From positions 1 through 64,000 of IMG/VR virus record IMGVR_UViG_3300035698_007508: DNA of 64,000 nucleotides. One strand, given 5' to 3'. The notes under the pieces are model-generated. The model did not search any database, was not told the DNA's origin, and was given only the letters and a program-made list of their open reading frames with translations. The position numbers and the translations under genes were made by a program. Shown here piece after piece: positions 14,127-42,348 of this stretch (the first letter of the stretch is position 1; each line of letters starts with the position of its first letter). The stretch is from a virus.

Positions 14127-14468
14127 GTGTCCATGACTAGGGATCAGGTAATGAAGGCGATAGCTGACGGCGCGGACCCCAGTAGATTGGGCGCGCTGGC
14201 GCATCGCATCAAGGACTACGTGCAAGCAACGGGTCAGCACTGGGTGAAGACGCCACGCTATGACTGGCACAAGGCAACGCCACGTGAGCTGCGCTTAATC
14301 CGAGAGGGTAAAGTGCCGAGCCATCCGCGGCGAGCGTTCAAACCGGAGCCGCCCCTATGGGTGGTACAAGACAAGGACCGGAGCGTACCGATAGGGAGGA
14401 AGAAGCGGAAGAGCAGGAAGAGTTGGAAGTCACGCCGTAACCCGGCACAGATGCAGTTAAAACTGTAA
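14127..14468 (+). CDS. Basic hypothetical protein with Lys/Arg-rich C-terminus
   Basis: GGAGGAGG SD; RKKRKSRKSWKSRR tract. Confidence 0.6.
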   Translation: MSMTRDQVMKAIADGADPSRLGALAHRIKDYVQATGQHWVKTPRYDWHKATPRELRLIREGKVPSHPRRAFKPEPPLWVVQDKDRSVPIGRKKRKSRKSWKSRRNPAQMQLKL

Positions 14469-14486
14469 CAAGCGAAGGAGTATGCT

Positions 14487-15134: not shown

Positions 15135-15159
15135 TAATGCAATAACACGGAGGAGTTCG

Positions 15160-16157: not shown

Positions 16158-16880
16158 ATGCATCAAGTACCGAATTGGAATCAGTGGTTCGCCACCATGG
16201 CGGACCATGTCAAGACCAAGTCCAAGGACCGCTCTACCCAGGTAGGCGCTGTCATCGTGGGCGAAGGGCATCACGTGTTGAGCGTGGGCTACAACGGATT
16301 CCCCCGTGGGATCGATGACGACATAGAGGAACGCCACGAACGTCCGCTCAAGTACTACCTGGTCAGTCACGCGGAGGAGAACGCTATCCTCCACGCTGCG
16401 CGACACGGTATCAAGGTGCTGGGTGCGGACCTGTACTGCACGACGCCGTTCATCTGCGCCGAGTGTGTCAAGGCTATCATTCAGGCTGGGATCGTGCGTA
16501 CGTTCGCGCCGGACCGGGAGATGCAAGCCTGTGGTGACGATTGGTACCGCTCGTGCGCCATCGGTCGTAACATGCTGCTCGAAGCAGGTGTTGAGGTCTG
16601 GCTCATGGACGACGCGGGCAGACAGGAACGCGTGACTGAACCGGCACGTGTACCGGATGCACCTGTGCCAAGCTTGGAACCGCGTACGGATCAGGACGCT
16701 ACCCAGTGGGATGCACTGGTCGACGCGCTGGAGGTGTACGGCAACAAGGAGGGCACCGAGGGTGAAGCTCAAGCAGTGGTACCGCGATACCATCACAGAT
16801 ATCTCCGGTGTCTGCAGCTCGATCTCCGAAGGCCTGGGGCGTACGACGCTCATGGTCGGCCTGGAGTACCAGGACGCTGA
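16158..16880 (+). CDS. Deoxycytidylate (dCMP) deaminase with C-terminal extension
   Basis: W...F...A....SKDRSTQVGAVIV, SVGYNGFPRG, zinc motif HAEENAI...PFICAECVKAIIQAGI. Confidence 0.92.
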   Translation: MHQVPNWNQWFATMADHVKTKSKDRSTQVGAVIVGEGHHVLSVGYNGFPRGIDDDIEERHERPLKYYLVSHAEENAILHAARHGIKVLGADLYCTTPFICAECVKAIIQAGIVRTFAPDREMQACGDDWYRSCAIGRNMLLEAGVEVWLMDDAGRQERVTEPARVPDAPVPSLEPRTDQDATQWDALVDALEVYGNKEGTEGEAQAVVPRYHHRYLRCLQLDLRRPGAYDAHGRPGVPGR

Positions 16881-26554: not shown

Positions 26555-27220
26555 ATGAGTAAACAGGCAGGGTTTCGTAACGCAGGTTTAGGTGCGATGG
26601 CAGGTGCACTTGGCGGTGGCGCGCTTGGGGGCGTCGCAGGTCTTGCGGTATCACCACTCATGGCACTTAACGCGGCGACACAGAAACGGGAAGAGGGCGG
26701 TGAGCGCAAGAGTCGCGTAGCCGCCGCGCTCAAGGCACTCATTGCTTCGCCGCTGATGGGTGCCGCCGGTGGCGCAGCCGTCGGTTTAGGTATGGGCGGC
26801 ACTGGCGGGTTACTGTACCCGGATAAACAGGCTAACGCACACAAGGAGTCCACCATGAAGAGAGCAAATTATCTGGCTGGCATGCTCATGGCAGTCAAAG
26901 ACGCATCGGGCGCCCTGGCTGTACGTCCACCCGATCTGGACAAGGCCACAGCACCGGCAACCAAACCCCGTGAAGACCAGGCCGATCAGGGTCGGACGAC
27001 CCCGGCGCCGAAGCCCGAGCCCGACATCAAGCCCGAACAGAGCGCCCAGGCGCAGACCGTAGCCAAGCAGGCATGGGCCGATCTCGACGTGGGCGAACGA
27101 CAGTACATCAAAGGTATCGTCAAGGCGTGTCAGGACAACAACGTGAATCCCGTTACGCTGGTACCGGTTGAGTTTGCGAAGGGCGCGTCTACTGAATTGA
27201 AACAGGAACGAGGGGCGTAA
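26555..27220 (+). CDS. Glycine-zipper K-x-A virion protein (possible internal start at 26854)
   Basis: MSKQAG, GAMAGALGGGALGGVAG, GAAGGAAVGLGMGG; internal AAGGAG...ATG. Confidence 0.7.
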   Translation: MSKQAGFRNAGLGAMAGALGGGALGGVAGLAVSPLMALNAATQKREEGGERKSRVAAALKALIASPLMGAAGGAAVGLGMGGTGGLLYPDKQANAHKESTMKRANYLAGMLMAVKDASGALAVRPPDLDKATAPATKPREDQADQGRTTPAPKPEPDIKPEQSAQAQTVAKQAWADLDVGERQYIKGIVKACQDNNVNPVTLVPVEFAKGASTELKQERGA

Positions 27221-27561
27221 TGCGACCAGAGTACACGCAGATTTTGACGCCGGCCGAGCGCGCAGCTGCGATGAAGCTGGGTATGGCTACGGCCGCCACG
27301 CGTAGTCGCATGCCACTCAAGATGGCCATCGACAATCCGTTTACATTCAGTGGTATGTTCGCCAACGTCACGGGCGGGGCGCGCAGTACTGCGGCGGCGA
27401 TGGCTGCCGTGTCATTACTTGCCGGTGCCCCACTTGGTGCTGCAGCACACGTTTTAGGCCGTAAGATCAAAGGTAACCAGAAAAGCGAGAAGGAACGTCT
27501 GGACCGAATACAGTATTACCGCGACATCACGCGACAGCTCGAAACCGGGCTAGCCCGGTAA
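27220..27561 (+). CDS. Small glycine-zipper K-x-A protein
   Basis: LKMAID; SLLAGAPLGAAAH. Confidence 0.7.
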   Translation: MRPEYTQILTPAERAAAMKLGMATAATRSRMPLKMAIDNPFTFSGMFANVTGGARSTAAAMAAVSLLAGAPLGAAAHVLGRKIKGNQKSEKERLDRIQYYRDITRQLETGLAR

Positions 27562-27571
27562 GGGAGGCCAT

Positions 27572-27985
27572 ATGCTTGCGGGACTGCAAGACGAAATGAC
27601 CGGGCAACCAGTTGGTCCCGGCAATGTCGATTTCACAGTCGGGGAATCGATGTTCGAAACGTTGGGAAACACGCGGGGCTTGCGCCCCGATGCAGACGTC
27701 ATGGCGCAAGCCATGGATCGCCTGTTGATAGACCGTAAGGTCGAGGTCAAAGAGTTTGTAGCCAGAACGTACGATCTGAACGACGAGACACAGCGTAATC
27801 AGTACCAGTACGATATGGAGATGATCTTCTTCGGCCTGCAGTTGCGAACGCATGCGATCATTCATCGTGCGCCGCTACAATTTGTGAACGACGAGCAAGG
27901 ACCGCGGTACATCGCGCATTTGCAGTGGATTGAATTCACGCTACTGCAAAAACCGGTACCGACTGTCGGATCTAAAAAGGAGTAG
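27572..27985 (+). CDS. Hypothetical protein
   Basis: GGGAGG SD. Confidence 0.75.
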   Translation: MLAGLQDEMTGQPVGPGNVDFTVGESMFETLGNTRGLRPDADVMAQAMDRLLIDRKVEVKEFVARTYDLNDETQRNQYQYDMEMIFFGLQLRTHAIIHRAPLQFVNDEQGPRYIAHLQWIEFTLLQKPVPTVGSKKE

Positions 27986-27989
27986 GATC

Positions 27990-29705
27990 ATGAAACAGAC
28001 TAGTCAAGGGCTTATGCAGAATCGGGCCGTGCGCGTAGGCTTGGGCGGCGCTGCCGGTGGGGCTGGTCTCGCCGCCGTACTCAACCTCATGCACGAACTG
28101 CAGTTGGAGAAGAAACGCCGTGCCATGGCCAAGGATATCGGACGTACCGACGAGAACACGATTGTACTGACCCTGCCCAATAAGCAGGGCGAGGTACAGG
28201 CCAGCGAGGGCGAGCCCACGACTGTAAAGACTGTACAGCGCGCCAGTTCGTCTACTACTGCGGTCCCGGCCAAGACTTACCGTGTGGGACATTATGGCAC
28301 ACAGCAGATGAAGGTAGCTACGCCATGGCCATTGAACACCAGCTGGATGCAGTGGGCGCTGGGTGCGCTGGGCGTGGCGGGCGGTGGCGTTGCCGGGTAT
28401 ACCGCGATGGACGCGCTATATCAGGCCCGGCTCAAGCGCAAACTGCAGGGCGAGGAAGATAATGCACGGCAGGAAATGCTGGACATGCTCCAGAATCCAG
28501 GACTCAAGACCGGCGGCTGGCTGGATGAGATCATTGACGTACCTGGCATCGCTGCAATCAGCGCCGATAAGACGGCCGCTGTTAAATCCGCGGTGCCTTA
28601 TATAGACCCAGTGCTTGGCAGTTTAGTCGCGTTGACCCTGCTCGGGACTGGCGGTACGGCCTACCTGACCAAGCGGCTACTGGACGCCAAGCAGGACGAG
28701 CATGATCAGGAAGGGCGCGTTACACCCAAGGTACGGCGTATCGTTTTCCGGTCTTCACCGCAAGTGGCGGACCCAGCACTCAAGCAGGCCAGTGCCGAAG
28801 ACCTGGGCATTCTACAGGCATCCCTCGTCATTATGATGGACAAGATGAGCGGCGAAACACGCGTGCTCGATCATCCTGAAATGGTACCCATCTTGAAGGA
28901 AGCTGGTATTACCGTATCCGGGCTGTTCAAGATGGCGGATAGCGCGACAGATCTTATAGGTTACTTGTATTCCAATCCGGATATGTGGCGGAAGGCCAAG
29001 AATCTCGGCATCCAACAGCGTCCGGGATTACGTACTGTTGGCTGGGGCGAGCACAAGTTCGAGATACCAGCCGGTGCGGCCAATACCATGGCTAATTTAC
29101 CCGGCGTACGCGGGTATACCGATAATCTGATGCGCACCAAGCTGGAAACCATGCTCCGCGGCTCGTCTGGGCAACGCTGGACGCCGTCACCTGACCAAGC
29201 CAGTACGATGTCCGGTCAGGAACTCCGTAATATCCGTAGAGGTAACGATGCTCGCCGTATGCGCTTGGCGTCTGGTATGGCGCAACCCAAGCCAGGTGAA
29301 CAAGGCTACGGCGGGTTAGATCTTAAGCAATTATTGGGCAAAGTATGGGGCAACGTCTCGAACTTTGCCAAGGGTATCGGCCCGCGCTTCGTCCAGGGCT
29401 GGGAAGGCTTTTCCGCACCCCAGACACCCAGCCAGACACCCAACCAGGCCGCTAACGCCGTGAAGTACTCCAACGCGGTCATGCCTATCCTCAGCAGCTT
29501 CGTTGGTAGTTCGCTCGCACGCGGACGAGATAACGAGCCAGAACCACAGACGTGGGAAGCGTTGCCCGAGCGTACCGATGTCAACCGCGTCCTACGCAAC
29601 ATCAAGCTGGACGCGGAAGACCCCGAAGCCGAGCGATACCTACAGGCCAAACGCGCACGTATCCGCGCCATTCTAGGTCAGCTCGTGGCAGAGGGTAAAT
29701 TATAA
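27990..29705 (+). CDS. Large glycine-zipper K-x-A virion protein
   Basis: GLGGAAGGAGLAA, ALGALGVAGGGVAG, LGSLVALTLLGTGG; KTAA, KQAS, KMAD. Confidence 0.7.
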   Translation: MKQTSQGLMQNRAVRVGLGGAAGGAGLAAVLNLMHELQLEKKRRAMAKDIGRTDENTIVLTLPNKQGEVQASEGEPTTVKTVQRASSSTTAVPAKTYRVGHYGTQQMKVATPWPLNTSWMQWALGALGVAGGGVAGYTAMDALYQARLKRKLQGEEDNARQEMLDMLQNPGLKTGGWLDEIIDVPGIAAISADKTAAVKSAVPYIDPVLGSLVALTLLGTGGTAYLTKRLLDAKQDEHDQEGRVTPKVRRIVFRSSPQVADPALKQASAEDLGILQASLVIMMDKMSGETRVLDHPEMVPILKEAGITVSGLFKMADSATDLIGYLYSNPDMWRKAKNLGIQQRPGLRTVGWGEHKFEIPAGAANTMANLPGVRGYTDNLMRTKLETMLRGSSGQRWTPSPDQASTMSGQELRNIRRGNDARRMRLASGMAQPKPGEQGYGGLDLKQLLGKVWGNVSNFAKGIGPRFVQGWEGFSAPQTPSQTPNQAANAVKYSNAVMPILSSFVGSSLARGRDNEPEPQTWEALPERTDVNRVLRNIKLDAEDPEAERYLQAKRARIRAILGQLVAEGKL

Positions 29706-29714
29706 GGATAACTC

Positions 29715-32700
29715 ATGGCATTACCAGACCACCTGAGGGCGTTTGACGATACTCAGACCGCCCGGGATTGGTTACATACGGGTGCCGTCGAAGCGCTTCA
29801 GAACAGATTCCCGATCGAGGATCAGGATTACAAGCTGGAGCTCGACGACGTACGCATCCAGGGTCCAACCCATTTCGGATTAGAACGTCAGAAGCAAGCA
29901 TTGATGAAGGACGAGCAACTGCGCGTCCCCATCAAGGGTCGCTGGCGTTTGACACACAAGCAGTCCGGAGAAGTATTGGACGAGCGTGAAGATACGGTGA
30001 TGCACTTGCCGTATCTGACTGATCGCGGTACTATGATCTACCGTGGTAATGAGTACAGTACGGTCAGTCAGTCCCGCCTCAAGGCCGGCGTTTATGCACG
30101 TCGCAAAAAGAGTGGTGAAATTGAGTCATTCTTCAATGTCAAGCCTGGCACTGGCCGGTCTTTCCGTGTCTGGCTTGAACCACAGACTGGTGTGTTTAAG
30201 GTCAATGTCGGCCAGTCGAACATTCCGCTATACCCGATGCTTTCTGCCCTGGGCGTGAAAGATGCCGATCTGATGAAATCGTGGGGTCCGGATATCTTGG
30301 ACGCTAACCGCAAGGCCCGCGCCGCCCAAGCCATCGACAAGTTGTATCAACGCTTTACTGGTAAGGCCCCGAGTACCGAGATCAGTGAGCAGGCGCGCCG
30401 TGAGGTTCTGGCCGAGGCACTGAACAAGGCAGAAATGGATCCGACCGTTATCGCACGTACGTTGGGCATCCAAGGCGATGGCCGGGTTTCGCCAGCCATA
30501 CTCATGCGCTCGACACAGAAGCTACTGGGCATCAGTCGCGGTGAGGACAAACCGGACGATCGTGACGCGCCTATGTACAGTCGCGTGCTATCGATCGAGG
30601 ACTTCATCAAGGAACGCATCGACAACGACAGCGGCAAGCTGGCGCGATCGCTGCTGTTCAAGGCACGCCGTGATCGTAACCTGCGCCGTGTGCGGGTGGG
30701 TGCGCTTAACGGTTATTCCACCGGCTTTCTACTGGGCAGCCGCCTGACCATGCCGCTGGAAGAGACCAATCCCCTTTCCCTATTGGAGCAGATGAACCGG
30801 GTCACCAAACTGGGTGCCGGTGGTATCTCTGATGCCGACGCGATCACGGACGAAGCCCGTAACGTGAATATCGGGCAATTGGGGTTCATCGATCCCGTGA
30901 CAGGGCCGGAAGATATCAAGATCGGTATCGACACACGCCTGGCATACAGAACTTTCAAGGGCCGCGATCAGCAGATGTATGGTGAGTTTCGGGACGCCCG
31001 GTCCGGAAAGATGGCTTACCTACGTCCGGAAGATCTCGACGGGAAGGTGGTCGCCTTTCCCGGTGAGATGGCTGGCAAAGGGAAGACTGCGACGGCAGCC
31101 GTGGATGGGACGATTCGTGAAGTCCTTAAGAGCAAGGTGGATATCGAAGTACCGTCCATGGCTCACATGCTGTCGTCGCACGTCAACCTCAACCCCATGC
31201 CTACCGCTGTACAGCCCGCTCGGCAGTTCTACGGTGCCAAGTTCTGGTCCCAGTACCTGCCGCAGGTAGAGGGCGAAGCGCCGCTCGTGGATACCGCTAT
31301 GCCTGAGGGTGATCAATCGTTCACCCAGCATTTTGGTAAGCGCGTGGGCACGCTCATGGCGCAGAAGCCTGCCACTGTTACACGTGTCACCGACAGCAAG
31401 GTGTTTCTGCGGGACGTGGACGGTGAGAAGCAGGAGATCGACCTGGTGCAGAACTTCCCGTTCAACCGTATCACCGGCGTCAGTTACCGCCCGGCCGTCA
31501 AGGCCGGTGATGCTGTCGAGGCCGGCGATGTACTGGCGCGCTCCAATTTCGTTGACGATAACAACGCACTGACATTGGGCCGGAATCTCTCCGTAGCTGT
31601 CATCCCCTATCGCGGTAATAGCTACGAAGATGGGATAGTCATTTCGGAGGATGCGGCCAAGAAATTAACAACTAGCCGGCTGTACGGTTTCGATGCCGAG
31701 GTCAAGCACGACGTACAGCTGGGTAAGAATCGGTACGCCAGTCTATTCCCTGCACGATTCTCGAAGAAGCAGCTCGAAGCGCTGGACGACGAGGGTATCG
31801 CCAAGCCGGGCACGGTATTGCAGAAGGGTGATCCGATCATCTTATCTGTTGGTCCGAAGTTGCTCACTGCCGAGGACGTACAGTTAGGGCGCCTGCACAA
31901 GGCGTTACGCCAGGCGCATACGGACAAGGCTGTAGTGTGGGACCACGACTATGAGGGTGTGATCACGGACGCCGTACGCACGCGTAGCGGCGCCAAGGTC
32001 AACGCCAAGGCCAGTGTACCGGTCCAGGTGGGCGACAAGCTGTCACCGCGCTGGGGATTGAAGGGTGTTGTGGCCAAGATCATACCTATGGATCAGATGC
32101 CGCGGCACGCCGGTACCAATGCGCCGTACGATCTGCTACTCAACCCCATGACCATTCTATCACGCGTTGCAGCGGGAGCCCTTGTCGAAATGCAGCTTGG
32201 TAAGCTGGCCAAGCTGCGCGGCAAGGGCTTCAAACTCCCGCAGATGCCGCCGGAAGAGGGCTGGTCCGCCTGGGCGCAACGTCAGCTACTTGAGGCAGGC
32301 GTGGACGAGAAGGATCAGATATTCGATCCCGAGCTGGGTCGAGCACTGAACAAGCCCGTCGCTACCGGCAACATGTACTGGATGGCGTTCCATCACCTTT
32401 CTGAGAAGAAGCTGAGTGAGCGTGGCTCGTCCGGCCTGGGCTACACACAGGATGAACTGCCGGCCCGCGGTGGGTCTGAGACGCAACAGGCCAAGAAGAT
32501 GAGTCAGATGGACATCACGCAGCTTCTGGCGCACGGTGCTACCGACGTGGTCAAGGATGGGCAGATCATCCGCGGCGCCCGGAACGAAGACTACTGGAAG
32601 GCGCTCAAGCTGGGCCGCCCGCTACCGACTCCCGACGTACCGTTTGTGTACAAGAAGTTCCTGAACCTGTTGAACGCCAGCGGCATCAACATCGAGCAGA

Positions 32701-34106
32701 AGGGCGATACGTTGCGGTTGCTGCCTATGCTTGACGAGGACGTTGATCAATTGAGCCACGGTGCAATCACGACCAGCGCGAGGGTGGACGACAAGATGGA
32801 GCCCATCAAGGGTGGGCTGTTTGATCCCGGGCGTACGGGCGGTGCAATGGGTAAGTTCTGGTCGCACATTGACCTGGTCGAGCCAATGCCCAACCCTGTC
32901 TTCGAAGAGCCGATCCGGCGCCTGTTAGGCCTGCGCAAGCAGGACTTCACCGATATCCTGGCCGGGCGTCAGGAACTCAACGGCCAATCAGGCGGCAAGG
33001 CTATACGTGATGCACTAGCCGGTATCGATATCGACGCGCAGATCAAGGAGCACCGGGGTAACATCCGTAAGTACCGCGGCGCCAACCGGGACAACTCGAT
33101 CAAGATCCTGGGATACCTGGACGCCGCCAAGAAGCAGGCCATCCACCCATCCAAGTGGATGTTGACCAAGCTTCCGGTACTGCCGCCCGTGTTCCGCCCT
33201 GTATCCCGTCTGGGCGATATCACGATCGAAGCTGACCTGAACGAGCTGTATCGCGATGCGATCGAGGTCAACAACGCTATCGGCACATTGCGTAAGGATC
33301 TACCCGAGTCGGAACTACAGGACGAGAAGGAAGCGCTGTACCGTGCAGTGAAGGCCGTGACAGGGCTTGGCGATCCAATCACACCCGAGGGACGGTCCCG
33401 CCGCCTTAAGGGCGCGCTCAAGAACGTCATCGGTGATTCACCAAAAAGCGGATTTTTTCAAAGTAGAGTTATCTCCAAGCCTGTTGACCTGGTTGGGCGT
33501 GCAGTCGTAACGCCGGATCCGACGTTGGACATGGATAGTGTAGGATTGCCCGAAGACTCTGCCTGGGACCTGTATCACGACTTTGTCGTCCGGCGGCTGG
33601 TGCGCCAGAACGTACCGTCGCACCGCGCACTCAAGATGATTGAGGATCGTGAGGCCCCAGCCAAGGATGCATTGAACCTGGAAATGCAGTCACGGCCTAT
33701 CATCATGGACCGTGCGCCGACCTGGCATCGATTCAATCTACTGGCGTTCCGGCCACATCTGGTCGAGGGTAAGACCATGCACGTGAGCCCGTTGATCACC
33801 AAGGGCTTCAACATGGATTTTGACGGTGACGCCGTGAACTTCCATGTACCGGTGTCAGACAAGGCTGTGGAGCAGACATACAGCAAAATGCTACCGAGCA
33901 AGAACCTGTTCAGTCTGACCGACTTGAAGTCGCCCCGCCACACCCCGCAGCAGGAAATGGCGCTTGGCCTGTACCTGCTGACCCGTGCCAAGACCGCTCG
34001 GGAGTCCAAGACTTTCGCTACGGTAGCCCAGGCGCGCCGGGCGTATAGGGCCGGAGAGATTGGCGCCAACGATCCGATCAACATATTGGAGTTGAAAGAT
34101 GCCTAA
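29715..34106 (+). CDS. rpoBC: DNA-directed RNA polymerase: beta subunit fused to the N-terminal half of beta-prime (catalytic)
   Basis: RpoB blocks (GTMIYRGNEY.TVSQ, ETNPLS...LGAGGI, GRNL.VA.IPY.G..YEDGIVISE, GDKLSPRWG.KG, LLNP....SR, HHL..K) then, after about 32700, RpoC blocks (GLFD, HIDL, LPVLPP.FRP, DLNELYR, GRAVVT, RAPT.H, NMDFDGD at 33810-33830). Confidence 0.95.
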   Translation: MALPDHLRAFDDTQTARDWLHTGAVEALQNRFPIEDQDYKLELDDVRIQGPTHFGLERQKQALMKDEQLRVPIKGRWRLTHKQSGEVLDEREDTVMHLPYLTDRGTMIYRGNEYSTVSQSRLKAGVYARRKKSGEIESFFNVKPGTGRSFRVWLEPQTGVFKVNVGQSNIPLYPMLSALGVKDADLMKSWGPDILDANRKARAAQAIDKLYQRFTGKAPSTEISEQARREVLAEALNKAEMDPTVIARTLGIQGDGRVSPAILMRSTQKLLGISRGEDKPDDRDAPMYSRVLSIEDFIKERIDNDSGKLARSLLFKARRDRNLRRVRVGALNGYSTGFLLGSRLTMPLEETNPLSLLEQMNRVTKLGAGGISDADAITDEARNVNIGQLGFIDPVTGPEDIKIGIDTRLAYRTFKGRDQQMYGEFRDARSGKMAYLRPEDLDGKVVAFPGEMAGKGKTATAAVDGTIREVLKSKVDIEVPSMAHMLSSHVNLNPMPTAVQPARQFYGAKFWSQYLPQVEGEAPLVDTAMPEGDQSFTQHFGKRVGTLMAQKPATVTRVTDSKVFLRDVDGEKQEIDLVQNFPFNRITGVSYRPAVKAGDAVEAGDVLARSNFVDDNNALTLGRNLSVAVIPYRGNSYEDGIVISEDAAKKLTTSRLYGFDAEVKHDVQLGKNRYASLFPARFSKKQLEALDDEGIAKPGTVLQKGDPIILSVGPKLLTAEDVQLGRLHKALRQAHTDKAVVWDHDYEGVITDAVRTRSGAKVNAKASVPVQVGDKLSPRWGLKGVVAKIIPMDQMPRHAGTNAPYDLLLNPMTILSRVAAGALVEMQLGKLAKLRGKGFKLPQMPPEEGWSAWAQRQLLEAGVDEKDQIFDPELGRALNKPVATGNMYWMAFHHLSEKKLSERGSSGLGYTQDELPARGGSETQQAKKMSQMDITQLLAHGATDVVKDGQIIRGARNEDYWKALKLGRPLPTPDVPFVYKKFLNLLNASGINIEQKGDTLRLLPMLDEDVDQLSHGAITTSARVDDKMEPIKGGLFDPGRTGGAMGKFWSHIDLVEPMPNPVFEEPIRRLLGLRKQDFTDILAGRQELNGQSGGKAIRDALAGIDIDAQIKEHRGNIRKYRGANRDNSIKILGYLDAAKKQAIHPSKWMLTKLPVLPPVFRPVSRLGDITIEADLNELYRDAIEVNNAIGTLRKDLPESELQDEKEALYRAVKAVTGLGDPITPEGRSRRLKGALKNVIGDSPKSGFFQSRVISKPVDLVGRAVVTPDPTLDMDSVGLPEDSAWDLYHDFVVRRLVRQNVPSHRALKMIEDREAPAKDALNLEMQSRPIIMDRAPTWHRFNLLAFRPHLVEGKTMHVSPLITKGFNMDFDGDAVNFHVPVSDKAVEQTYSKMLPSKNLFSLTDLKSPRHTPQQEMALGLYLLTRAKTARESKTFATVAQARRAYRAGEIGANDPINILELKDA

Positions 34107-34923
34107 GCTGTGGGCGTGCAAAGATGGGTCCGTACTGATTGGTAGTGTCGAGGCGCAGGCCGCCGGCGGGCTCAGCTATGTACCGGATAGTTGCGCCACA
34201 GTTAACGTGTACGTACAGGCGTTTTACGACGACTACAGACACACGCATAGGTGTGACGATGCTTGCTTCGGCATTTATCTGCACACAGATAGGACAGTGC
34301 GGTTCCTAGGCTACGCGCAGTTGGATAACTGGATCGATGGCGGCTCCCGCTATAGTCCGTGGTGGTACATCGACTGGTCTACGGTTGACTACAACTGTCC
34401 GTGTGTCCAGTTCGAGGCACGCTGTGCAGAGAATGATCCTATAGACGATTGCGGCGGTGTACACGGTACCGGCAGTATTAGACCCGCAACGGAGTGTCAT
34501 GACGGTGTTGTCACCCTGTGCGTACGTAGCACAGCGGGCCCTAACTGTACCGCTTTGGGGTGCAATGTGATCATAGCCAATACGTGGTATCACATATGGG
34601 ACATCGCGGCCTTGACGCCGTGTGTTGGCGGCGCGTCGGTGGCCGCAATCGGACCTGCACGCGTGGAGCCTGCTGATCTACTGTGGGATGCTGCTCATCT
34701 GGCGCACGGGTTCGAATTGCGCGGTACAGATGGCGAAGCGTGGCTGCTGGCGGCCACCGACACTGACATAGAACGTGAAGCGCGCAGGGCGCACGCGGAT
34801 GAACGCGTGGCAATCTGTAAAGAGTGTCCACATTTCACGTCGGATTCCTGCGGTATCTGGAATGCGGACATGGCCGCGATACGCTATGGGCTAGATATAT
34901 GTCCGTTACGTAAATGGTGGTAA
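34099..34923 (+). CDS. Cys-rich hypothetical protein
   Basis: Many Cys; C-terminal ERVAIC..CPHF...C...CP..KW. Confidence 0.65.
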   Translation: MPKLWACKDGSVLIGSVEAQAAGGLSYVPDSCATVNVYVQAFYDDYRHTHRCDDACFGIYLHTDRTVRFLGYAQLDNWIDGGSRYSPWWYIDWSTVDYNCPCVQFEARCAENDPIDDCGGVHGTGSIRPATECHDGVVTLCVRSTAGPNCTALGCNVIIANTWYHIWDIAALTPCVGGASVAAIGPARVEPADLLWDAAHLAHGFELRGTDGEAWLLAATDTDIEREARRAHADERVAICKECPHFTSDSCGIWNADMAAIRYGLDICPLRKWW

Positions 34924-34986
34924 AATGAGTTGCATACATCGTGGCGACTGTAGTACCGTAATATGCACATCTTGGAAGGAGACAAC

Positions 34987-35607
34987 ATGACACAGAGACT
35001 TGACTACGTGAAGTTACAGGCCGTTATGGACGGTTTTCAGAAGAAGGCGTTCGTCGCTATGCCCGGCGGGGCCGATCCAGCCGCAGGCGGGATGCAGTCA
35101 CAAGCACAGGCCGCACCACCCGGTGGCGCACCTATGGACCCGGCCGCGATGGGCGGAATGCCGATGGACCCGATGGCGGGCGGCGGTATGCCGATGGACC
35201 CGGCGGCAATGGGCATGGGCCCAATGCCCGGCTCGGTTACGATGTCCATCCCTGAACTCATTGAGTTCATTGCCGTCGTGAAGGGTGACGGAGCTGCGGC
35301 TGCGGGCGAGAAGCCTAAGAAGAAGGACGACGAAGCAGCACCGGCGGCCGGCGCACCGGCCGAGGCCGATCCGATGGCGTCGCTGAACCAGAAACTTGAC
35401 CAGCTCTTGGCGGCCGCCGGCGGCGGTATGCCGATGGACCCGATGGCAGGCGGTGGCGGTATGCCACCAATGGCCGACGGCGGTGGTATGCCGATGGACC
35501 CGATGGCGGGCGGCGGTATGCCAGCTGATCCGATGGCGGGCGGCGGTATGCCAGCTGATCCGATGGCTGGCGGAGCGCCGATGGGCGGAGCGCCGCCACC
35601 TATGTAA
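34987..35607 (+). CDS. Met/Gly/Pro-rich low-complexity K-x-A protein
   Basis: GAAGGAG SD; QKKAFV; repeated GGMPMDPMAG. Confidence 0.75.
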   Translation: MTQRLDYVKLQAVMDGFQKKAFVAMPGGADPAAGGMQSQAQAAPPGGAPMDPAAMGGMPMDPMAGGGMPMDPAAMGMGPMPGSVTMSIPELIEFIAVVKGDGAAAAGEKPKKKDDEAAPAAGAPAEADPMASLNQKLDQLLAAAGGGMPMDPMAGGGGMPPMADGGGMPMDPMAGGGMPADPMAGGGMPADPMAGGAPMGGAPPPM

Positions 35608-35615
35608 GGACTAAC

Positions 35616-35873
35616 ATGGCAAATGGACGACCTGGACGGGTACGCGTGTTGCAGGGGGTCAAGCAGGTTCTGCTGGACACGCACGAAGCTACCGTCATCG
35701 AATTCCGGGACCAGTTTGGGGATCTGAACGCGTTGATCTCACGTCATTTCAACGATGACATGTGGATCTTCACGACCAAGGCCGATCCGGACTGGCACAC
35801 GCACTTGGTGCGGTTGGGCTATGCGCCAGCTGATATGAACGTACATCAACTCGTACAGAACTTGAAAGGCTGA
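35616..35873 (+). CDS. Hypothetical protein
   Basis: AAGGA SD, tight operon spacing. Confidence 0.7.
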   Translation: MANGRPGRVRVLQGVKQVLLDTHEATVIEFRDQFGDLNALISRHFNDDMWIFTTKADPDWHTHLVRLGYAPADMNVHQLVQNLKG

Positions 35874-35874
35874 C

Positions 35875-36279
35875 ATGAATGATACACCCGCATTGAGCTA
35901 CGTTCCGCCTTGGGTCCGCGACCTAATGGTAGGCCTTTGTACCGCCGCCGTACTCGCATCCGTAACCCTAGTCTTACGCCTGGACAAGACCGTCGCTACG
36001 TTTGTCGAGTCGCACGTGGAGACGCATAGGCAGCTGGACAGGATGATTACGGAGTTGAAGAACAATACCGTTCAGACCGCCCGCGAAGTCAACCTACTGC
36101 ACGACGATTTCCTTGAGTTCTCGGCCGGCACTACTGCTAACCGTTACACCATCTACAACGCGTTTACGGATCAGAAGAAGAGTGCCGAGGAGCTCAGGGA
36201 AGTATGGAACGCTATTCACGAGATCAAGTTGGACGTGGTCAAAATACAGAGCGATAGCGAGCGCATTACGCACGAGTGA
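35875..36279 (+). CDS. Single-TM protein with coiled coil (possibly holin-like)
   Basis: LMVGLCTAAVLASVTLVL followed by heptad-like helix. Confidence 0.65.
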   Translation: MNDTPALSYVPPWVRDLMVGLCTAAVLASVTLVLRLDKTVATFVESHVETHRQLDRMITELKNNTVQTAREVNLLHDDFLEFSAGTTANRYTIYNAFTDQKKSAEELREVWNAIHEIKLDVVKIQSDSERITHE

Positions 36280-36282
36280 CGT

Positions 36283-39243
36283 ATGCAGACAACCATCGGA
36301 CAGGTACTTGTAAACGACGCGCTTCCCGAGGAAATGCGGAATTACGGTCGGATATTGACCAGCAACGAAGCTGATGACTTGTTGGGCGCGGTTGCGCGTG
36401 ACCACCCCGAGGACTACCGTGATATCTCCCATGCACTGGTACAATTGGGCCGCAACGCCGCGTTCGAAGAGTCAGCAACGCTGTCCCTGTCTGACATGCA
36501 GGTCCCGTTTGACCGTAAAGAGCTGTTCGATCATGTACGCACTCAGACCCGTAAGATCATGGCGTCCAAGGATATGACTGACGATCAGAAACAGCAAGCG
36601 CTGGTTAGCGTATACGGGCAAGTCCAGAAATTCTTCGTCGATAACACGTACAAGGATATGGCGGCCAAGGACAACCCATTCGCGCTACAGGTACTGTCTA
36701 AGGCCCGCGGTAACCCGTCCCAGCTTGCAGCACTCATGACTACGCCTGGTACGTATACCGATGCATATGGCAACGTGATTCCCGTTTTCGTCCGCCATTC
36801 CTACGCCGAGGGCCTGAGCCCTCACGAGTACTGGGCGGGTACGTACGGCGCTAGGCAGGGTGTGATATGTTTGCATCCCGATACGGAGGTATTATTAGCC
36901 GATTTTACGGTCAGGAGGTTATCCGAGATCCGCGTTGGCGACACAGTATTAACAGATACTAATGAAGGCTTGGTACCTACTGCAGTACGTGCTGTGCACA
37001 ATAACGGGCTACAGCCTATGTATGAATTTACGTTCCGTAAGAATGCGAGCCAGTCTTACGTGCATGTCACGTGTACTGACCAACACAAATTCAAGGCGCG
37101 TTTGTGGAAGTCGGGCGCACGAGGCACGCCGCGAAAACTGCTTGAACCGCAGCTACGTCCTTTGTCAGACGCACGGTACCAGCGCAGGAAATGGAATAAT
37201 AATTACGTGGCAGTGCCAGCTGGAGGCGCGTGCGTTGGAGGTAAGCACGAACCGTTGGCATTACTATTGGGTTTGATGCTGGGTGACGGGTGTACAACCA
37301 AGTCTACACGTGGGCGATATAGTATCAGCTGCGCTGATCAGATTCTGATACGCGATGTACACGATTATATGGCAGAGCACGGTGTAGAACTGGTTAAAGT
37401 CGGTGGTGACAATTATAACTGGGTATTGAAACAGGCTTCAGCTGTATTCAATACCACACATACCAGCTTGACGAGCTATATGGGCGGAAAGTATGCACAC
37501 CAGAAAACATTACCGGTAGATATATATACGTGGGATACACACAGTATAGGCGCATTGGTAGGCGGATTGATAAGCGCTGACGGTAGCTTTACGCGCAGCG
37601 AAACAAGTAAGTGGATGTGTATACAGTGCACATCCAGAGATATGATCGCAGAACTGCATCGCGTACTGGAACTCAGACTAGGCGTATGGTGTAACCCTAT
37701 TTACCGTGTGGATAAAGCTGACAAACAGCACGCAGTACACGATCAATACGGTTTCACGATCACGCACCCCGATTCACTATGCAAACTTAGAGCGTGTATC
37801 ACGCTTGTAGGTATAAAGCGTGAACAGTTTGCAGCGTGGGATCTCAAGCCAGGTACGCGCTATAGTCCGCACGGTTTTCGTATACAGGGGCGTAGACTTG
37901 TCGGTATGCAGCCTGCACTAGATCTAGAAGTTGAGCACGTTTCTCATACATTTGTACTGGCGAACGGACTTATATCGTCTAATAGTACGAAATTTGCCAC
38001 CCGTGACGCTGGCGATCTAGGTAAGCAGTTCAACCAGGCGGCCATGCGTATGGTCGTGACCGCGAATGACTGCGACACGGCGAGCGGTATACCGGTCTCC
38101 ACCGACGACAAGGATACGATTGGTGGGGTACTGGCGCGTAAGGCCGGCAAGTACCCACCCGGCACCGTAGTTTCCAAAGAGGTACTTGAGGATCTGCAGG
38201 ACCTGGACAGTATCGTGGTGCGGTCTCCGCTCACCTGCGGCTTGTCCCAGGGCGTGTGCAAGCAGTGCGTCGGGCTCCGTGAGAATGGGGCCTTCCCGAA
38301 CACGGGCGATCATGTAGGTATCAACGCGGCCAGTGCGCTGGCCGAACGTATCGCCCAAGGAAGCTTAAATGTGAAACATTCTGGCGGCATGTCCAAGGGC
38401 GATACGGGCGAGAAAGTTTACGCTGGCTTCGATGTGATCAATCAGCTGTTCCAGGCACCCAAGACGTTTCCGAACCGCGCCGCCATCGCCACGATGGACG
38501 GCCGTGTTGATCGTATCGAGCCCGCCGCACAGGGCGGTCAGAACATCTATATCGACGACGAGCTCCATTACGCGTTGCCTGACGCCAAGGTAACCGTGCA
38601 GGTAGGGGACCGGGTCGAGGCTGGTGACCAGCTGTCCAGCGGTATTCTTAATCCCCGAGAGGTCGTGCAGTATAAAGGTATCGGCGAGGGCCGGCGTTAC
38701 TTCACGGAACGGGCGGCCCAGGCATTCCGTGAGAGCGGGTACAGCATCAATCGCCGCAATCTCGAAATCCTGGTTCGCGGTATGATGGATCACGCGGTGG
38801 TAGATGATCCCGACGGTTCTGGCGATTACCTACCAGGCGACATCGTGTCCTACAACGCTCTGGCCCGCGGGTACCGGCCACGCAAGGACGCGCAGCAGTT
38901 GGACACGGACAAGGCTATCGGACAGTACCTGGAACAGCCGATCCTGCACCACACGATCGGGACGCGCATCACCCGCGCTATGGCCAAGCAGTTACGTGAC
39001 TTCGGACACACACGTGTACTGGCGCACCCGTCGGTACCATCGTTTTCCCCGACGATGGTAGGCCTGCGTGCCGTACCGCAGCAGGAGTCAGACTGGATGG
39101 CACAGATGGGCTCCAGCCATTTGCAGAAGAATTTGCTCAAGAACGTACAGCGTAATGCTGAGTCTCAGACGCACGGCCTACACCCGGTACCGGCGTTGGC
39201 TAAAGGTGTGGACTTCGGAGATACAGAGGAGGTCGGGTACTGA
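36283..39243 (+). CDS. rpoC: RNA polymerase beta-prime C-terminal half, intein-containing
   Basis: TTIGQVL.N..LP, SKARGNPSQL, EGLSPHEY....GARQG (bridge helix), VVT.NDC, RSPLTC...GVC..C.G (Zn), trigger loop AERIAQGSLNVKHSGG, INRRNLEILVRGM. Confidence 0.93.
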   Translation: MQTTIGQVLVNDALPEEMRNYGRILTSNEADDLLGAVARDHPEDYRDISHALVQLGRNAAFEESATLSLSDMQVPFDRKELFDHVRTQTRKIMASKDMTDDQKQQALVSVYGQVQKFFVDNTYKDMAAKDNPFALQVLSKARGNPSQLAALMTTPGTYTDAYGNVIPVFVRHSYAEGLSPHEYWAGTYGARQGVICLHPDTEVLLADFTVRRLSEIRVGDTVLTDTNEGLVPTAVRAVHNNGLQPMYEFTFRKNASQSYVHVTCTDQHKFKARLWKSGARGTPRKLLEPQLRPLSDARYQRRKWNNNYVAVPAGGACVGGKHEPLALLLGLMLGDGCTTKSTRGRYSISCADQILIRDVHDYMAEHGVELVKVGGDNYNWVLKQASAVFNTTHTSLTSYMGGKYAHQKTLPVDIYTWDTHSIGALVGGLISADGSFTRSETSKWMCIQCTSRDMIAELHRVLELRLGVWCNPIYRVDKADKQHAVHDQYGFTITHPDSLCKLRACITLVGIKREQFAAWDLKPGTRYSPHGFRIQGRRLVGMQPALDLEVEHVSHTFVLANGLISSNSTKFATRDAGDLGKQFNQAAMRMVVTANDCDTASGIPVSTDDKDTIGGVLARKAGKYPPGTVVSKEVLEDLQDLDSIVVRSPLTCGLSQGVCKQCVGLRENGAFPNTGDHVGINAASALAERIAQGSLNVKHSGGMSKGDTGEKVYAGFDVINQLFQAPKTFPNRAAIATMDGRVDRIEPAAQGGQNIYIDDELHYALPDAKVTVQVGDRVEAGDQLSSGILNPREVVQYKGIGEGRRYFTERAAQAFRESGYSINRRNLEILVRGMMDHAVVDDPDGSGDYLPGDIVSYNALARGYRPRKDAQQLDTDKAIGQYLEQPILHHTIGTRITRAMAKQLRDFGHTRVLAHPSVPSFSPTMVGLRAVPQQESDWMAQMGSSHLQKNLLKNVQRNAESQTHGLHPVPALAKGVDFGDTEEVGY
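36868..37983 (+). mobile_element. Intein with LAGLIDADG homing endonuclease (372 aa)
   Basis: Starts CLHPDT, ends TFVLANGLISSN with Ser+1; LLGLMLGDG and VGGLISADG motifs; removing it restores GARQGVI-STKFAT; visibly more AT-rich than the flanks. Confidence 0.92.
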
Positions 39244-39413
39244 TGGGTACGCTATCCAAACATTATGGGACTGGTGCAGCCACGGGGTTGACAGGTTACT
39301 TATTGACCCGTATGCTCTTACCACGGTCTGAACAGCCCGAGAACCGTTCGTTGAGTGAGGCAGATCAATTTTACGAAGTGGAGGCCGACGCAGGTTGTTG
39401 GCGTCCGCTATAG
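39243..39413 (+). CDS. Small hydrophobic peptide (MGTLSKHYGTGAATGLTGYLL...)
   Basis: 56-aa ORF read from the sequence; ATG overlaps the rpoC stop. Confidence 0.4.
   Translation: MGTLSKHYGTGAATGLTGYLLTRMLLPRSEQPENRSLSEADQFYEVEADAGCWRPL
39288..39316 (+). promoter_or_regulatory. Sigma70-like promoter upstream of the head gene block
   Basis: TTGACA-17 nt-TATGCT. Confidence 0.55.
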
Positions 39414-39495: not shown

Positions 39496-42348
39496 ATGAA
39501 GTTGGCTGACGTTCTGGCGACCCCGCCAAATAGCTTGATCAAGGACGCGGATATCGAGAGTCCCGACGAGGCGCAACTGGAGCGGGACTTTGCGAGCATG
39601 GCGTTCGTGTTCTTGCGTGACCGAGCCCCGGCGCTTATGCCCTATCTATTAGGGTTCGAGGTCGTAGACCGCGAAGAAGACGGTTCCCGCGCTATCGGTA
39701 TCTTTGGATTCAAGATCTCCGGCGAATACTACTACGTCCCCGCGTTCTTCGTGAACCAGCAGGTCAAAGGTATGGACCTGTTGTTCGCCAAGAAGACCAA
39801 CAGTTTCATGCCGCTGCGTGAGACCTGGATCAATCATTTGCTCGACAAGTCCACGTTACAGCTCGGCGAAGGCCGTAACGACAAGAAGCTGCGCGAAGAC
39901 TTCGAGAACCCCAATTTCGACTTCATCTCGTCACCGCCTGGTACGACCAAGCTGGCCAACGCCGGACTCGGTTACCTGTTCACAGCAGAGGAACTGGCTA
40001 AGTTGGGTCAGATTGTCACACCGGCACAGACGTCGGGTATCCCGCGTCCCCTGATGATGGCACAGCAGGCACAACCGGGCGCACAGCCGCAGCAGGACCC
40101 GAACGCCAGCGGCGCAGCTGTACAGCCACCACCAGCGTCCGGCGTCGTGCCGGTAGGTAACGTGGCCACACTTCAACAGGCTGGTCAGGTACTACCCGGG
40201 AACGTCACCGGTCAGACACCGCAGTTCCCCGGTAAGGCTGCAGGCGTTAGCGCACGCGGTAAGCGAGACGGTAGCGGTCCATACGGTGCTAGTGCGCAGC
40301 GTTCGTTGACCGGTGATAAGGGCGTACGTCAACTTGCTGGCGAAGAATGTCCGATGGCGGCCGGCGGCACCAAGGCCGATTCAGAACTCACACCGGCGGA
40401 AGCCAAGGCGCGTAAAGCGTGGAAGTCTAGCCAAAAACAGGCCGGGTGGCACGTTGGCCAGTGTCACGAAGCATGGAACGATATACAGGGCGCCGTCGCG
40501 GAAAGCATGGCCAAGGATGCCGCTTTTCAGATGGACTGGGCCGGGTTCGTCGCAGCTCTCAACAAGCAGACCCTTGACGATTGGCACAAAACGGCTGACG
40601 GTAGCCCTCTTCTTTCATACATCGCGCACCACGGTGGTCCACGGGCTGCACGTGCGCTGATGACGTCGCTGGGTAACGTGAAGTTCGCCAACGCGGCCCT
40701 TCTTTTTTACCCATCAGTCGAGTCCCTGTACGTGCACGAGTTCGACGCCAGCCTACAGCCCGAGAAGCGTGCAGCTACGATCAGCGTGGTCAGTAGCGGC
40801 GAGATGGATGGACCATGTTGCCCTGAAGACGCTTCCGACGCCGAGCGTAAACGTCTGGTACGCGATAGTTTCAGCATCATCGATCGCCGTGACTCCGAGT
40901 CCAAGTCGGAAGTGTTCGACGCTGCGTACGAGAAGCAGTACTCTAATCCGACCGAGAGCGGTACCTACGACTTGTTACTGCCAACCGGTAGTACGGCCGA
41001 GGCCTGGGTTCTACAACAGGCGGGCGGACAACCTGGTAAGGGCCTGGTAGTTGTCGAGCCGTCCAATCGTTTCTTCTTCACTGCCGATCCATCCCGCGTA
41101 TACGTACGCGGGGAACAGCGGGACGGTGATGGCCCGTACGCTAAGGCCAAGTCGCTGGGTAGCATGCAATCGGACGAGCGCTACATCCTGGTCAACGAGC
41201 GCGGCGACGCAAGCGCGCCATTCCGCGTACAAGCCGTGGTGGCCGAGAACGGTGAGCGCGTACGCATCCGTGTGAACTTTGAGACCTGTGTGGATCACGC
41301 GAAGTCACGTGCTGGTACGTTCGACGGTATCAGTGATGGTTACTATGACGATCGCACCAAGTACCTGCAGCTGTCCGACGACTCCAGTCCGAAGCTGCGT
41401 AAGGCCAATGAGAACCTGATTGTGTCCAAGGCATGGAAGGTAGTGAGCCTGGTCGACAAATACGATTACGCTCGCCCACCCAAGGCTATGGACGATCCGG
41501 AAGAGCGTTCCGCCGCACGTTCCGCCGCGGAGAATGCGTACGACGCGTTCTCACCCGGTGACCCTATTGACTTGGAAGAGGCATTCGGCAAGCACGCGAT
41601 CCATCGACTGACTGTTGAGGCTGCGGACCAGGGTAACACCTTCTATAGCTACTTCGACGGTTACACCGACGGTCCGTGGACGCAGAAGCAGGCCATGCTC
41701 AAGCTGGTTACCAAGTACGGCATGAGCGTTGACGACGCCGAGGACACGATGCTGGACGCCGTGGCGAACATGAAATCACGCAAGCTGATCAAACTGGCGC
41801 AGGGTGTCGGTATCGGCATGAACATGCCGCAACCCCCGAGCGCTACCGGCTCTGACCCGAGCACGGGAGTTCCGATCGAGGAACCGTGGACTGGTACCGA
41901 GACCGGCGAAATGCTGGGCGCACCGCCGCTGGCTGATACGATGGAGCCTGGCTACGCTGTCGGCGGGCAGACCGAGAACGAACTGTCCAGCGGTGGGCAG
42001 CAGGACGCGGGTCAGGAAGCTATGGCCCTGTCTGAACAGGCTGCCCAGACCGGTCAGAAGAACGTGTTCGATCACGCGACGATCGGTGGACTGGTACGCC
42101 TGTACGACGCTTCATCTGTGATCGATCAGTACGTACCCGAGCTGATCAAGGCGCTCGACCGCGTCGGTCGTATTCTCTTCATTTTCTACTGGAAGAACGA
42201 GGACTTCGCGGAACGTTACGGCAAGGAAGACCTGGCCGAAATGGAAGACCTGATCCGCGGTGTGTTCAAATCGTTCGGCGACTTGGTGCTCAAGTTGAAG
42301 CAGAAGTCGGTCGGTTCCGACGACAGCAAGGACGTGTTGGCGATATGA
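39496..42348 (+). CDS. Large K-x-A-motif internal head protein
   Basis: GAGGAG SD; KLAD, KLAN, KQAG, KTAD, KRAA, KLAQ; Q/P-rich linkers. Confidence 0.75.
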   Translation: MKLADVLATPPNSLIKDADIESPDEAQLERDFASMAFVFLRDRAPALMPYLLGFEVVDREEDGSRAIGIFGFKISGEYYYVPAFFVNQQVKGMDLLFAKKTNSFMPLRETWINHLLDKSTLQLGEGRNDKKLREDFENPNFDFISSPPGTTKLANAGLGYLFTAEELAKLGQIVTPAQTSGIPRPLMMAQQAQPGAQPQQDPNASGAAVQPPPASGVVPVGNVATLQQAGQVLPGNVTGQTPQFPGKAAGVSARGKRDGSGPYGASAQRSLTGDKGVRQLAGEECPMAAGGTKADSELTPAEAKARKAWKSSQKQAGWHVGQCHEAWNDIQGAVAESMAKDAAFQMDWAGFVAALNKQTLDDWHKTADGSPLLSYIAHHGGPRAARALMTSLGNVKFANAALLFYPSVESLYVHEFDASLQPEKRAATISVVSSGEMDGPCCPEDASDAERKRLVRDSFSIIDRRDSESKSEVFDAAYEKQYSNPTESGTYDLLLPTGSTAEAWVLQQAGGQPGKGLVVVEPSNRFFFTADPSRVYVRGEQRDGDGPYAKAKSLGSMQSDERYILVNERGDASAPFRVQAVVAENGERVRIRVNFETCVDHAKSRAGTFDGISDGYYDDRTKYLQLSDDSSPKLRKANENLIVSKAWKVVSLVDKYDYARPPKAMDDPEERSAARSAAENAYDAFSPGDPIDLEEAFGKHAIHRLTVEAADQGNTFYSYFDGYTDGPWTQKQAMLKLVTKYGMSVDDAEDTMLDAVANMKSRKLIKLAQGVGIGMNMPQPPSATGSDPSTGVPIEEPWTGTETGEMLGAPPLADTMEPGYAVGGQTENELSSGGQQDAGQEAMALSEQAAQTGQKNVFDHATIGGLVRLYDASSVIDQYVPELIKALDRVGRILFIFYWKNEDFAERYGKEDLAEMEDLIRGVFKSFGDLVLKLKQKSVGSDDSKDVLAI

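Follow-up and report, generated by a model that had tools for sequence, protein, structure and literature searches.

The window analysed here, 64 kb in length, is the first part of a 126,754 bp IMG/VR virus record (IMGVR_UViG_3300035698_007508) from an uncultured salt-lake phage, with an estimated completeness of about 60%. Two genes on its plus strand encode proteins related to the large subunits of bacterial RNA polymerase (RNAP). The first specifies a complete beta subunit joined head-to-tail to the front part of beta-prime (chain 1), and the second specifies the rest of beta-prime, interrupted by an intein (chain 2). A preliminary description of this DNA, made by inspection of the letters, had pointed out both open reading frames (ORFs), of 1463 and 986 aa, and their coordinates are exactly as reported there. 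The features of the two genes are as follows.

29715–34106 (+): chain 1 gene, complete beta and N-part of beta-prime head-to-tail, 1463 aa, ATG start.
29715–32711 (+): beta portion of chain 1, residues 1 to ~999, with the catalytic residues E638/D639, K775, K783, R817 and H894.
32709–32717 (+): beta/beta-prime junction (…INIEQKG/DTLRLL…), from alignment with E. coli beta and beta-prime and 12 relatives.
32712–34103 (+): N-part of beta-prime, residues ~1000–1463, corresponding by alignment to E. coli ~19–556.
33810–33830 (+): catalytic Mg-binding motif NMDFDGD (D1368, D1370, D1372).
36283–39243 (+): chain 2 precursor gene, 986 aa, ATG start; predicted spliced product 614 aa.
36283–36867 (+): N-extein, residues 1–195, starting with TTxGQ and ending with …GARQGVI in the N-terminal half of the bridge helix.
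36868–37983 (+): intein, 372 aa, from C196 to N567 with Ser568 as the +1 residue; a HINT splicing domain and a two-motif LAGLIDADG endonuclease.
37984–39240 (+): C-extein, residues 568–986, with the rest of the bridge helix, second zinc site, trigger loop and C-terminal clamp module.

Chain 1 passes from beta into beta-prime without a stop codon near nt 32700, as first noticed from the letters and now seen both in the alignment with the E. coli subunits and in the Pfam matches. Rpb2 domains 2, 3 and 6 are found at residues 148–904 and Rpb1 domains 1 and 2 at residues 1139–1387, with E-values of 1e-41 for Rpb2_6 and 4.6e-22 for Rpb1_2. Both double-psi beta-barrels are therefore carried on one chain, represented by the Rpb2_6 and Rpb1_2 domains. 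In comparison with solved structures, residues 15–1013 correspond to bacterial beta nearly to its end, and residues 1075–1450 to E. coli beta-prime 162–543. The C-terminus of E. coli beta (…GINIELEDE) aligns with …GINIEQKG (about residues 990–999, nt 32682–32711), and beta-prime starts immediately after it, from its residue ~19, with no linker and with E. coli beta-prime residues 1–18 absent. The clamp helices are at ~1172–1215, and the chain ends at E. coli beta-prime ~551–556, just beyond the catalytic barrel. Junction and chain end are the same in all relatives aligned. Identity to bacterial beta and beta-prime is 25–33%.

The catalytic residues of beta are retained, in agreement with the preliminary description. 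E. coli R678, E813, D814, K1065, K1073, R1106 and H1237 correspond to R503, E638, D639, K775, K783, R817 and H894, and in the beta-prime part E. coli R425, D460, D462 and D464 correspond to R1333, D1368, D1370 and D1372. Across 36 relatives the Asp residues (D639 and the DxDGD triad), both Lys residues and the Arg residues are invariant, and the position of E638 is Glu in 23. The catalytic motif had been read correctly as NMDFDGD rather than NADFDGD; of 121 fused homologues, 31 have this form, more than any other, while 25 have TMDFDGD and 14 have NADFDGD. The N-terminal zinc ribbon of beta-prime (E. coli C70, C72, C85 and C88) is deleted, leaving a 32-column gap in the window and in 12 of the 12 relatives aligned. 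Chain 1 contains no cysteine at all, and the same is true of 43 of 55 intein-less homologues.

Chain 2 matches Pfam Rpb1_5 as well as Hint and LAGLIDADG domains. Its first residues form the TTxG(R/Q) motif (E. coli beta-prime ~572), alignment with solved structures covers beta-prime from about residue 589 on, and it carries the bridge helix and trigger loop. The second zinc site is present: C597, C652, C659 and C662 (E. coli C814, C888, C895 and C898) are the sole cysteines of the exteins, and exactly four cysteines are found in 44 of 56 intein-less homologues. On a general rpoC profile of 1147 positions, chain 1 ends at ~539 and chain 2 starts at 549, so that the two are ~10 positions apart. 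The second gene had been described as the remainder of beta-prime, starting at MQTTIGQVL; this is right for where it begins, and incomplete in that the gene encodes a precursor with a 372 aa intein in the bridge helix. The intein, the loss of the zinc ribbon and the occurrence of the layout elsewhere had all been missed.

The intein is inserted within the bridge helix, between E. coli beta-prime A784 and D785. It is an exact insert, since chain 2 homologues that lack it (615–619 aa) align with residues 1–195 plus 568–986. Its key residues are C196, the block B motif TDQH (T265–H268), N567 and the +1 residue S568. Across 17 related inteins there is no variation in the C1 residue, TxxH (T70 and H73 of the intein), the two LAGLIDADG motifs or the terminal Asn (N372). 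Where a penultimate His is usual, this intein has Ser (…SSN/S), as do 14 of 16 related inteins at this site, the rest having His, Gly or Ala. The Pfam match to LAGLIDADG_3 has an E-value of 2e-8. An AlphaFold model of the intein has a mean predicted local distance difference (pLDDT) of 89.6 and a predicted template-modelling score (pTM) of 0.87; its best match in the PDB by Foldseek is PI-SceI (E 2.5e-17, template-modelling score 0.66 by query), followed by the TliVMA intein and PI-PfuI.

The G+C content of the intein (0.484 overall; 0.462 at third codon positions) is low compared to the exteins (0.55–0.60 and 0.66–0.70), consistent with a mobile origin. In four salt-lake metagenome runs, short contigs match the window at 100% identity with zero indels, and contigs from two runs span the N-boundary of the intein, indicating that it is present in the natural population. 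Among the best 120 chain 2 homologues, 56 are intein-less, 33 have an intein at the bridge-helix site and about 39 have one near the trigger loop. The bridge-helix inteins occupy two sub-sites, four residues apart. A precursor that keeps its intein should have no activity, as the enzyme cannot do without its bridge helix.

The fused form of chain 1 is not peculiar to this record. A search with residues 850–1463 gave 738 proteins at E ≤ 1e-10, and relatives are encoded by at least 525 IMG/VR contigs. Rpb2_6 and Rpb1_2 lie on one chain in 117 of the best 120 homologues, typically of about 1455–1470 aa, and the longer fused homologues carry inteins. The same junction is open in ~120 homologues of 46–87% identity, so that it is not a chance open frame. 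The two-chain layout also occurs, at ~30% identity, in the isolated phages Arash (from Salmonella) and D69, D148 and D181 (from Vibrio). The claim that this layout matches none exactly is thus wrong for phages. The 9.5 kb stretch holding both genes gave zero megablast matches to phage records. Full-text literature searches did not find a description of the fused-and-split layout; prior characterisation in close relatives had been named as something that would lower its novelty, and what was found is that Arash and the others share the layout while no account of it turned up in papers. As far as the searched literature goes, the layout is widespread and in deposited genomes, and undescribed in print. 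The window contributes the bridge-helix intein allele and evidence for one-chain relatives.

These one-chain relatives have beta and the whole of beta-prime in a single open frame of about 2050–2100 aa, and make up 14 of 88 related loci.

One-chain loci: L018:1-6432, L019:9719-16036, L074, L075, L085–L087, L089, L091, L092, L094, L095, L097 and L099.

At the position of the chain break of the window they carry merely a few residues, and the L019 protein (2076 aa) aligns without interruption across E. coli beta-prime 414–670. Trees were built from the chain 1 region (39 rows, 1374 columns) with three bacterial outgroups. All 24 of the 24 two-chain rows fall on one side of a branch, with a Shimodaira–Hasegawa (SH)-like support of 0.94 in FastTree and an SH approximate likelihood-ratio test (SH-aLRT) value of 91 in IQ-TREE. 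The profile search and phylogeny that had been suggested as a check gave Rpb2 and Rpb1 domains in the one case, and a grouping of the two-chain forms in the other. In both maximum-likelihood trees the bacteria join among the one-chain forms, and the two-chain forms are a single nested group, an arrangement that speaks for a complete fusion with one later cut. It is likely, but not secured, that the one-chain beta::beta-prime fusion is the older state and that a single cut, in the loop beyond the catalytic barrel, gave rise to the two chains.

Two results leave that order of events unsecured: trees that unite the one-chain forms survive an approximately unbiased (AU) test (log-likelihood difference 2.0, p 0.47), and the tree tool warned of a meeting of long branches, those of L019 and of the bacteria. 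In a thinned tree of 458 columns the backbone is unresolved (SH-aLRT 5 for the two-chain group). The reverse history, in which a three-piece enzyme like that of cyanobacteria fused its beta to the N-part of beta-prime and the one-chain forms were re-joined later, would be allowed by the AU test, and the breaks in beta-prime of cyanobacteria and of phiKZ-like phages fall in the same post-barrel region. We consider it unlikely, because the bacterial outgroup lies among the one-chain forms with the two-chain forms nested in both trees, a branch with SH-aLRT 98 groups three one-chain sequences with all of the two-chain ones, and a free beta accompanied by a split beta-prime was not found among the 88 loci.

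Some related loci show other arrangements. In L017 the gene order is reversed, with the beta-prime C gene (6538-8400) upstream of the fused gene (9275-15595). In L093:9923-15817 and L096:9917-15814 the match to chain 1 ends at about residue 1375, after the catalytic motif, and the frame continues for several hundred residues, which may represent an intein or another insert in the active site. The beta-prime C homologues of L021:16905-20633, L031:18504-22697 and L044:15993-19721 form the first ~620–640 residues of frames of 1240–1400 aa, and may be fused to a downstream conserved gene. Rhizobium phage RHph_Y65 (Kleczkowskaviridae; L004:11743-15126) has an undivided beta-prime of 1127 aa with 29% identity to chain 1 residues 1051–1426, and its cultured family represents another lineage of phage RNAPs.

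A sigma-70-family ORF, homologous to Arash gp10, is located at 69016–69720 of the record, outside the window (Sigma70_r3, 36.3 bits against a Pfam cut-off of 25.3); the Pfam Sigma70_r2 model has no match in the record. An earlier candidate for sigma, ORF 5133–5912, gave no sigma match and was discarded. The search took in five complete relatives, namely Arash, D69 and three IMG/VR records with a completeness rating of 100%. In each of them the beta-prime catalytic domain occurs in one frame only, and there is an ORF with sigma-70 region 3 above the Pfam cut-off. The alpha families PF01000 and PF01193 have no match in these five genomes, and are matched in 14 of 14 control genomes; PF01000 likewise has no match in the record of the window. 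In a predicted complex of sigma with chain 1 residues 1020–1345, the score was 0.62 compared to 0.16 for the best control, passing a mark that 58 of 80 solved complexes attain, as against 2 of 110 mismatched pairs. Three runs showed at least 50% contact agreement, with a partner pLDDT of at least 72, and the predicted interface places sigma residues 16–53 on clamp helices 1163–1207. As sigma on the clamp helices is a textbook interface, the prediction may have passed by reproducing known structures and not because the two really bind.

Promoter-like sites of the form TTGACA-N16-18-TAnnnT occur seven times on the plus strand of the 126 kb record and not at all on the minus strand. Three of the seven lie in non-coding gaps immediately upstream of genes, and these sites are candidate promoters, for either a host or a phage holoenzyme.

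26500–26528 (+): TTGACA-N17-TACGCT, 26 nt upstream of ORF 26555; weak, post hoc.
39288–39316 (+): TTGACA-N17-TATGCT, in the 253 bp gap after the beta-prime C gene; weak, post hoc.
All TTGACA-N16-18-TAnnnT sites (+): window 18273, 18530, 25940, 26500, 39288 and 47381; record 100946.

The site at 26500 heads a tightly packed gene block (26555–39243) that includes both RNAP genes. The stricter pattern TTGACA-N16-18-TAYGMT was picked after two of its three matches were known.

Taken together, the two genes probably specify the catalytic core of the phage's own bacterial-type multisubunit RNAP, repartitioned into two chains. By sequence, chain 1 holds the whole active centre with both double-psi barrels, and chain 2 contributes the bridge helix, trigger loop, second zinc site and C-terminal clamp. 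The intein would have to be removed before the enzyme works, giving a spliced chain of 614 aa, the size of intein-less homologues. The core would then pair with the phage sigma (69016–69720), for which the clamp helices of chain 1 are the predicted docking site. An alpha dimer would be unneeded, and the covalent tether between beta and beta-prime may replace alpha as an aid to assembly. Most likely, the enzyme is a phage RNAP that depends on sigma, does without alpha and, by analogy with Arash, is probably carried in the virion. In that phage Gp206, the homologue of chain 1, is the top virion protein (3516 spectra, 100% coverage), and Gp216 and the sigma Gp10 are also present in purified virions (OQ632216.1; Yousefi et al. 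2023, PMC10585845). By the same analogy, enzyme and sigma could be packaged in the capsid and injected, allowing transcription without the host RNAP. A fuller version of this proposal, in which the tether replaces alpha as the assembly platform, RNAP is injected along with sigma, and splicing in the bridge helix is an obligatory maturation and possibly a timing step, is offered tentatively as a possibility rather than a probability. If true, it would add a third kind of virion RNAP beside the N4/crAss and phiKZ types, and provide a natural two-chain core for studying the assembly of multisubunit RNAPs.

Several points weigh against parts of this interpretation. Virion packaging is taken from one relative, Arash, at about 30% identity, and the interpretation itself is drawn from DNA: all runs found to contain the sequence are DNA runs, with no RNA run listed. 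None of the low-depth short DNA contigs listed bridges the beta/beta-prime junction, and the C-boundary of the intein is likewise unbridged by them. Splicing is assumed, given the penultimate Ser in place of the usual His. A diverged analogue of alpha would escape the Pfam profiles, and as the record is only ~60% complete, a second RNAP, an alpha analogue or further sigmas may be encoded elsewhere in this phage.

A real enzyme that is absent from the virion would also account for the genes: the host RNAP would transcribe the RNAP block first, and the phage RNAP would then serve middle and late genes. Packaging is known only from Arash, and host-type sigma-70-like sites (TTGACA-N17-TAYGMT) stand at the head of the RNAP block (26500) and after it (39288), among the seven plus-strand sites described above. 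We find this improbable, since both chains and sigma are among the most abundant proteins of the Arash virion and the RNAP genes lie in the structural region, between portal and head genes; the promoter pattern, moreover, was defined post hoc, with two of its three matches already known, and a phage sigma could read it equally well. It is very unlikely that the two proteins have lost their activity and persist as relics that serve in capsid structure or in ejection. The loss of the zinc ribbon, the change of A459 to Met and the interruption of the bridge helix would suit such a role, but all catalytic residues checked are present (three Asp, both Lys and Arg being invariant in the 36 relatives), Met at the A459 position is the majority state in close relatives, the intein has all splicing residues except the penultimate His, and a cognate sigma co-occurs in 5 of 5 complete genomes. 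An assembly or frameshift artefact, or a bacterial rpoBC locus misbinned as viral, is refuted for practical purposes: although the record is a metagenome assembly with no listed read-derived contig across the junction, the junction is open in 117 of the best 120 homologues and in the isolated phages Arash and D69, Arash Gp206 (1525 aa) has peptide coverage over its full length, the record carries homologues of the Arash portal, terminase and sigma, and its identity to bacterial beta and beta-prime is just 25–33%.

The homologue of the portal gene of Arash and D69 is at 21123–23096 (+) of the window, and that of their large terminase gene at 106720–108498 of the record (both 29–31% identity); portal, terminase, sigma and one structural gene are common to the record and phages of the Arash/D69 type. 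The RNAP genes are situated between the portal homologue and genes conserved after beta-prime C, in the structural-gene region. ORF 27930–29705, directly upstream of the chain 1 gene, was considered as a portal gene and dropped, the homologue of the Arash portal being at 21123–23096; it is kept only in the closest relatives and belongs to no family. No Pfam or PHROG match was found for the neighbouring ORFs 26555, 27572, 27930, 34099, 34963, 35616, 35875, 39496, 42345 and 43361.

The chain 1 and chain 2 genes are separated by 2177 bp.

34099–36279 (+): four intervening ORFs (274, 214, 85 and 134 aa), with no evidence tying any of them to the enzyme.

Of these, ORF 34963–35607 (+) encodes a low-complexity protein rich in M, D, P, G and A, with repeated 'MDP…MGG' units. 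Among 51 two-chain loci, 25 have a gap of ~970 bp with two small conserved ORFs in it. In the position of ORF 34963–35607, relatives have a P/A/M-rich ORF of ~240 aa followed by one of ~80 aa (L030:14358-15089 and 15 other loci), and the larger has a conserved central helix (…QKLKPEQMMQ…YNMQQQL…); its likeness to ORF 34963 is based on composition. These two small ORFs were considered as alpha- or omega-like, and the larger was rejected as alpha, being a low-complexity protein rich in P, A, M and D. Directly 3′ of the beta-prime C gene, ORF 39496–42348 (+) encodes a 950 aa protein that occupies the same position in 39 related loci (27–58% identity); searches of Pfam and PHROG found no family for it, nor did ESM Atlas yield a useful lead. 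Elsewhere in the window, 16158–16880 (+) encodes a deoxycytidine monophosphate (dCMP)/cytidine deaminase (Pfam E 2.2e-18) that resembles the deaminase of Rhizobium phage RHph_Y65.

In cells, the two large RNAP subunits depend on an alpha-type platform to come together. A large clade of phages, with at least 525 IMG/VR contigs and members cultured on Salmonella and Vibrio, seems to dispense with alpha yet retain sigma. It offers a tractable natural system for examining the minimum required to assemble a two-barrel RNAP, the packaging and injection of such an enzyme, and the redrawing of subunit boundaries, with one-chain, two-chain and more finely split enzymes all occurring in the same family. 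Inteins are plentiful in this family too, at the best-conserved positions of RNAP, the bridge helix and trigger loop. For annotation, the genes are now labelled 'beta subunit' or 'hypothetical', and the filters of a published survey of phage RNAPs appear to have excluded them.

The comparisons drawn earlier with Helicobacter (a whole fusion), cyanobacteria and phiKZ-like phages hold. The rpoB-rpoC fusions of Helicobacter and Wolbachia (NCBIfam NF007172 and NF011417) resemble chain 1 in having beta head-to-tail with beta-prime, and of the NCBIfam models NF007172 matches chain 1 best (E 3.4e-93), although far under the cut-offs of these families (312 compared to 5372 bits). These fusions differ in carrying the whole of beta-prime on the same chain and in working with alpha and omega; their closer analogues are the one-chain relatives, such as L019. 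In cyanobacteria and plastids, beta-prime is also broken after the catalytic double-psi barrel, into rpoC1 (gamma) and rpoC2 (beta-prime) products, but beta is unfused and alpha and omega are present. The cyanobacterial break is ~20–50 residues further on than that of the window, an approximate figure taken from profile coordinates, as cyanobacterial chains were not among the best 60 PDB matches: on the gamma profile of 619 positions chain 1 stops at ~557, while on that of rpoC2 position 32–40 is matched by residue 49 of chain 2.

RNAPs of the phiKZ/AR9 type are likewise phage-encoded and multisubunit, with beta-prime split after the barrel. One enzyme set is packaged in the virion, and no homologue of alpha or omega has been found (Sokolova et al. 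2020, PMC7598289). Unlike the enzyme of the window, their beta is also split, they have no sigma homologue and there are two enzymes per genome. PHROG matches to phiKZ-type subunits are only 1e-10 to 1e-20, these being far more diverged, and the phiKZ-type break falls approximately a few tens of residues earlier (PMC7598289). Reviews of jumbo-phage RNAPs, including PMC7598289, do not mention the fused-and-split layout.

The preliminary description had also noted that phages with deep-branching multisubunit RNAPs are known. This is so for the mReC group (Weinheimer and Aylward 2020, PMC7481178), uncultured large tailed phages that resemble the window in having a bacterial-type deep-branching RNAP; their beta and beta-prime genes are separate, and the present layout is not theirs. 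The listing gives separate proteins of about 1000–1390 aa for beta and about 900–1300 aa for beta-prime, a fusion is named only for crAssphage, and neither a split nor an intein is mentioned (PMC7481178). The group was selected by a protein of at least 800 aa with NADxDGD (PMC7481178). In the window, beta-prime is shared between the fusion protein and a 614 aa chain, and the motif is NMDFDGD, so that this selection would exclude its clade; fused-type contigs from the mReC samples are, judged by length, absent from the mReC list.

The intein has the fold of PI-SceI (VMA1) and related LAGLIDADG inteins and shares with them C1, TxxH, the terminal Asn and the +1 Ser. It differs in its identity of 11–18%, its host protein and insertion site, and the penultimate residue (Ser, compared to His in the PI-SceI type).

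The closest known systems are those of Arash, with gp206 (1525 aa) and gp216 (606 aa), and of Vibrio phages D69, D148 and D181, which have the same two-chain layout, junction and chain end over 98–99% coverage. Arash and D69, like the record of the window, have a sigma homologue, and their genomes carry one RNAP and no detectable alpha. Arash and the Vibrio phages are unlike the window in their ~30% identity, the lack of an intein in beta-prime C, the motif AADYDGD and the presence of other genes between the RNAP genes. The Arash paper calls gp206 and gp216 simply 'beta' and 'beta-prime' and leaves fusion and split unmentioned (PMC10585845). As in the window, where the portal homologue lies nearby, the RNAP genes of Arash adjoin the portal gene.

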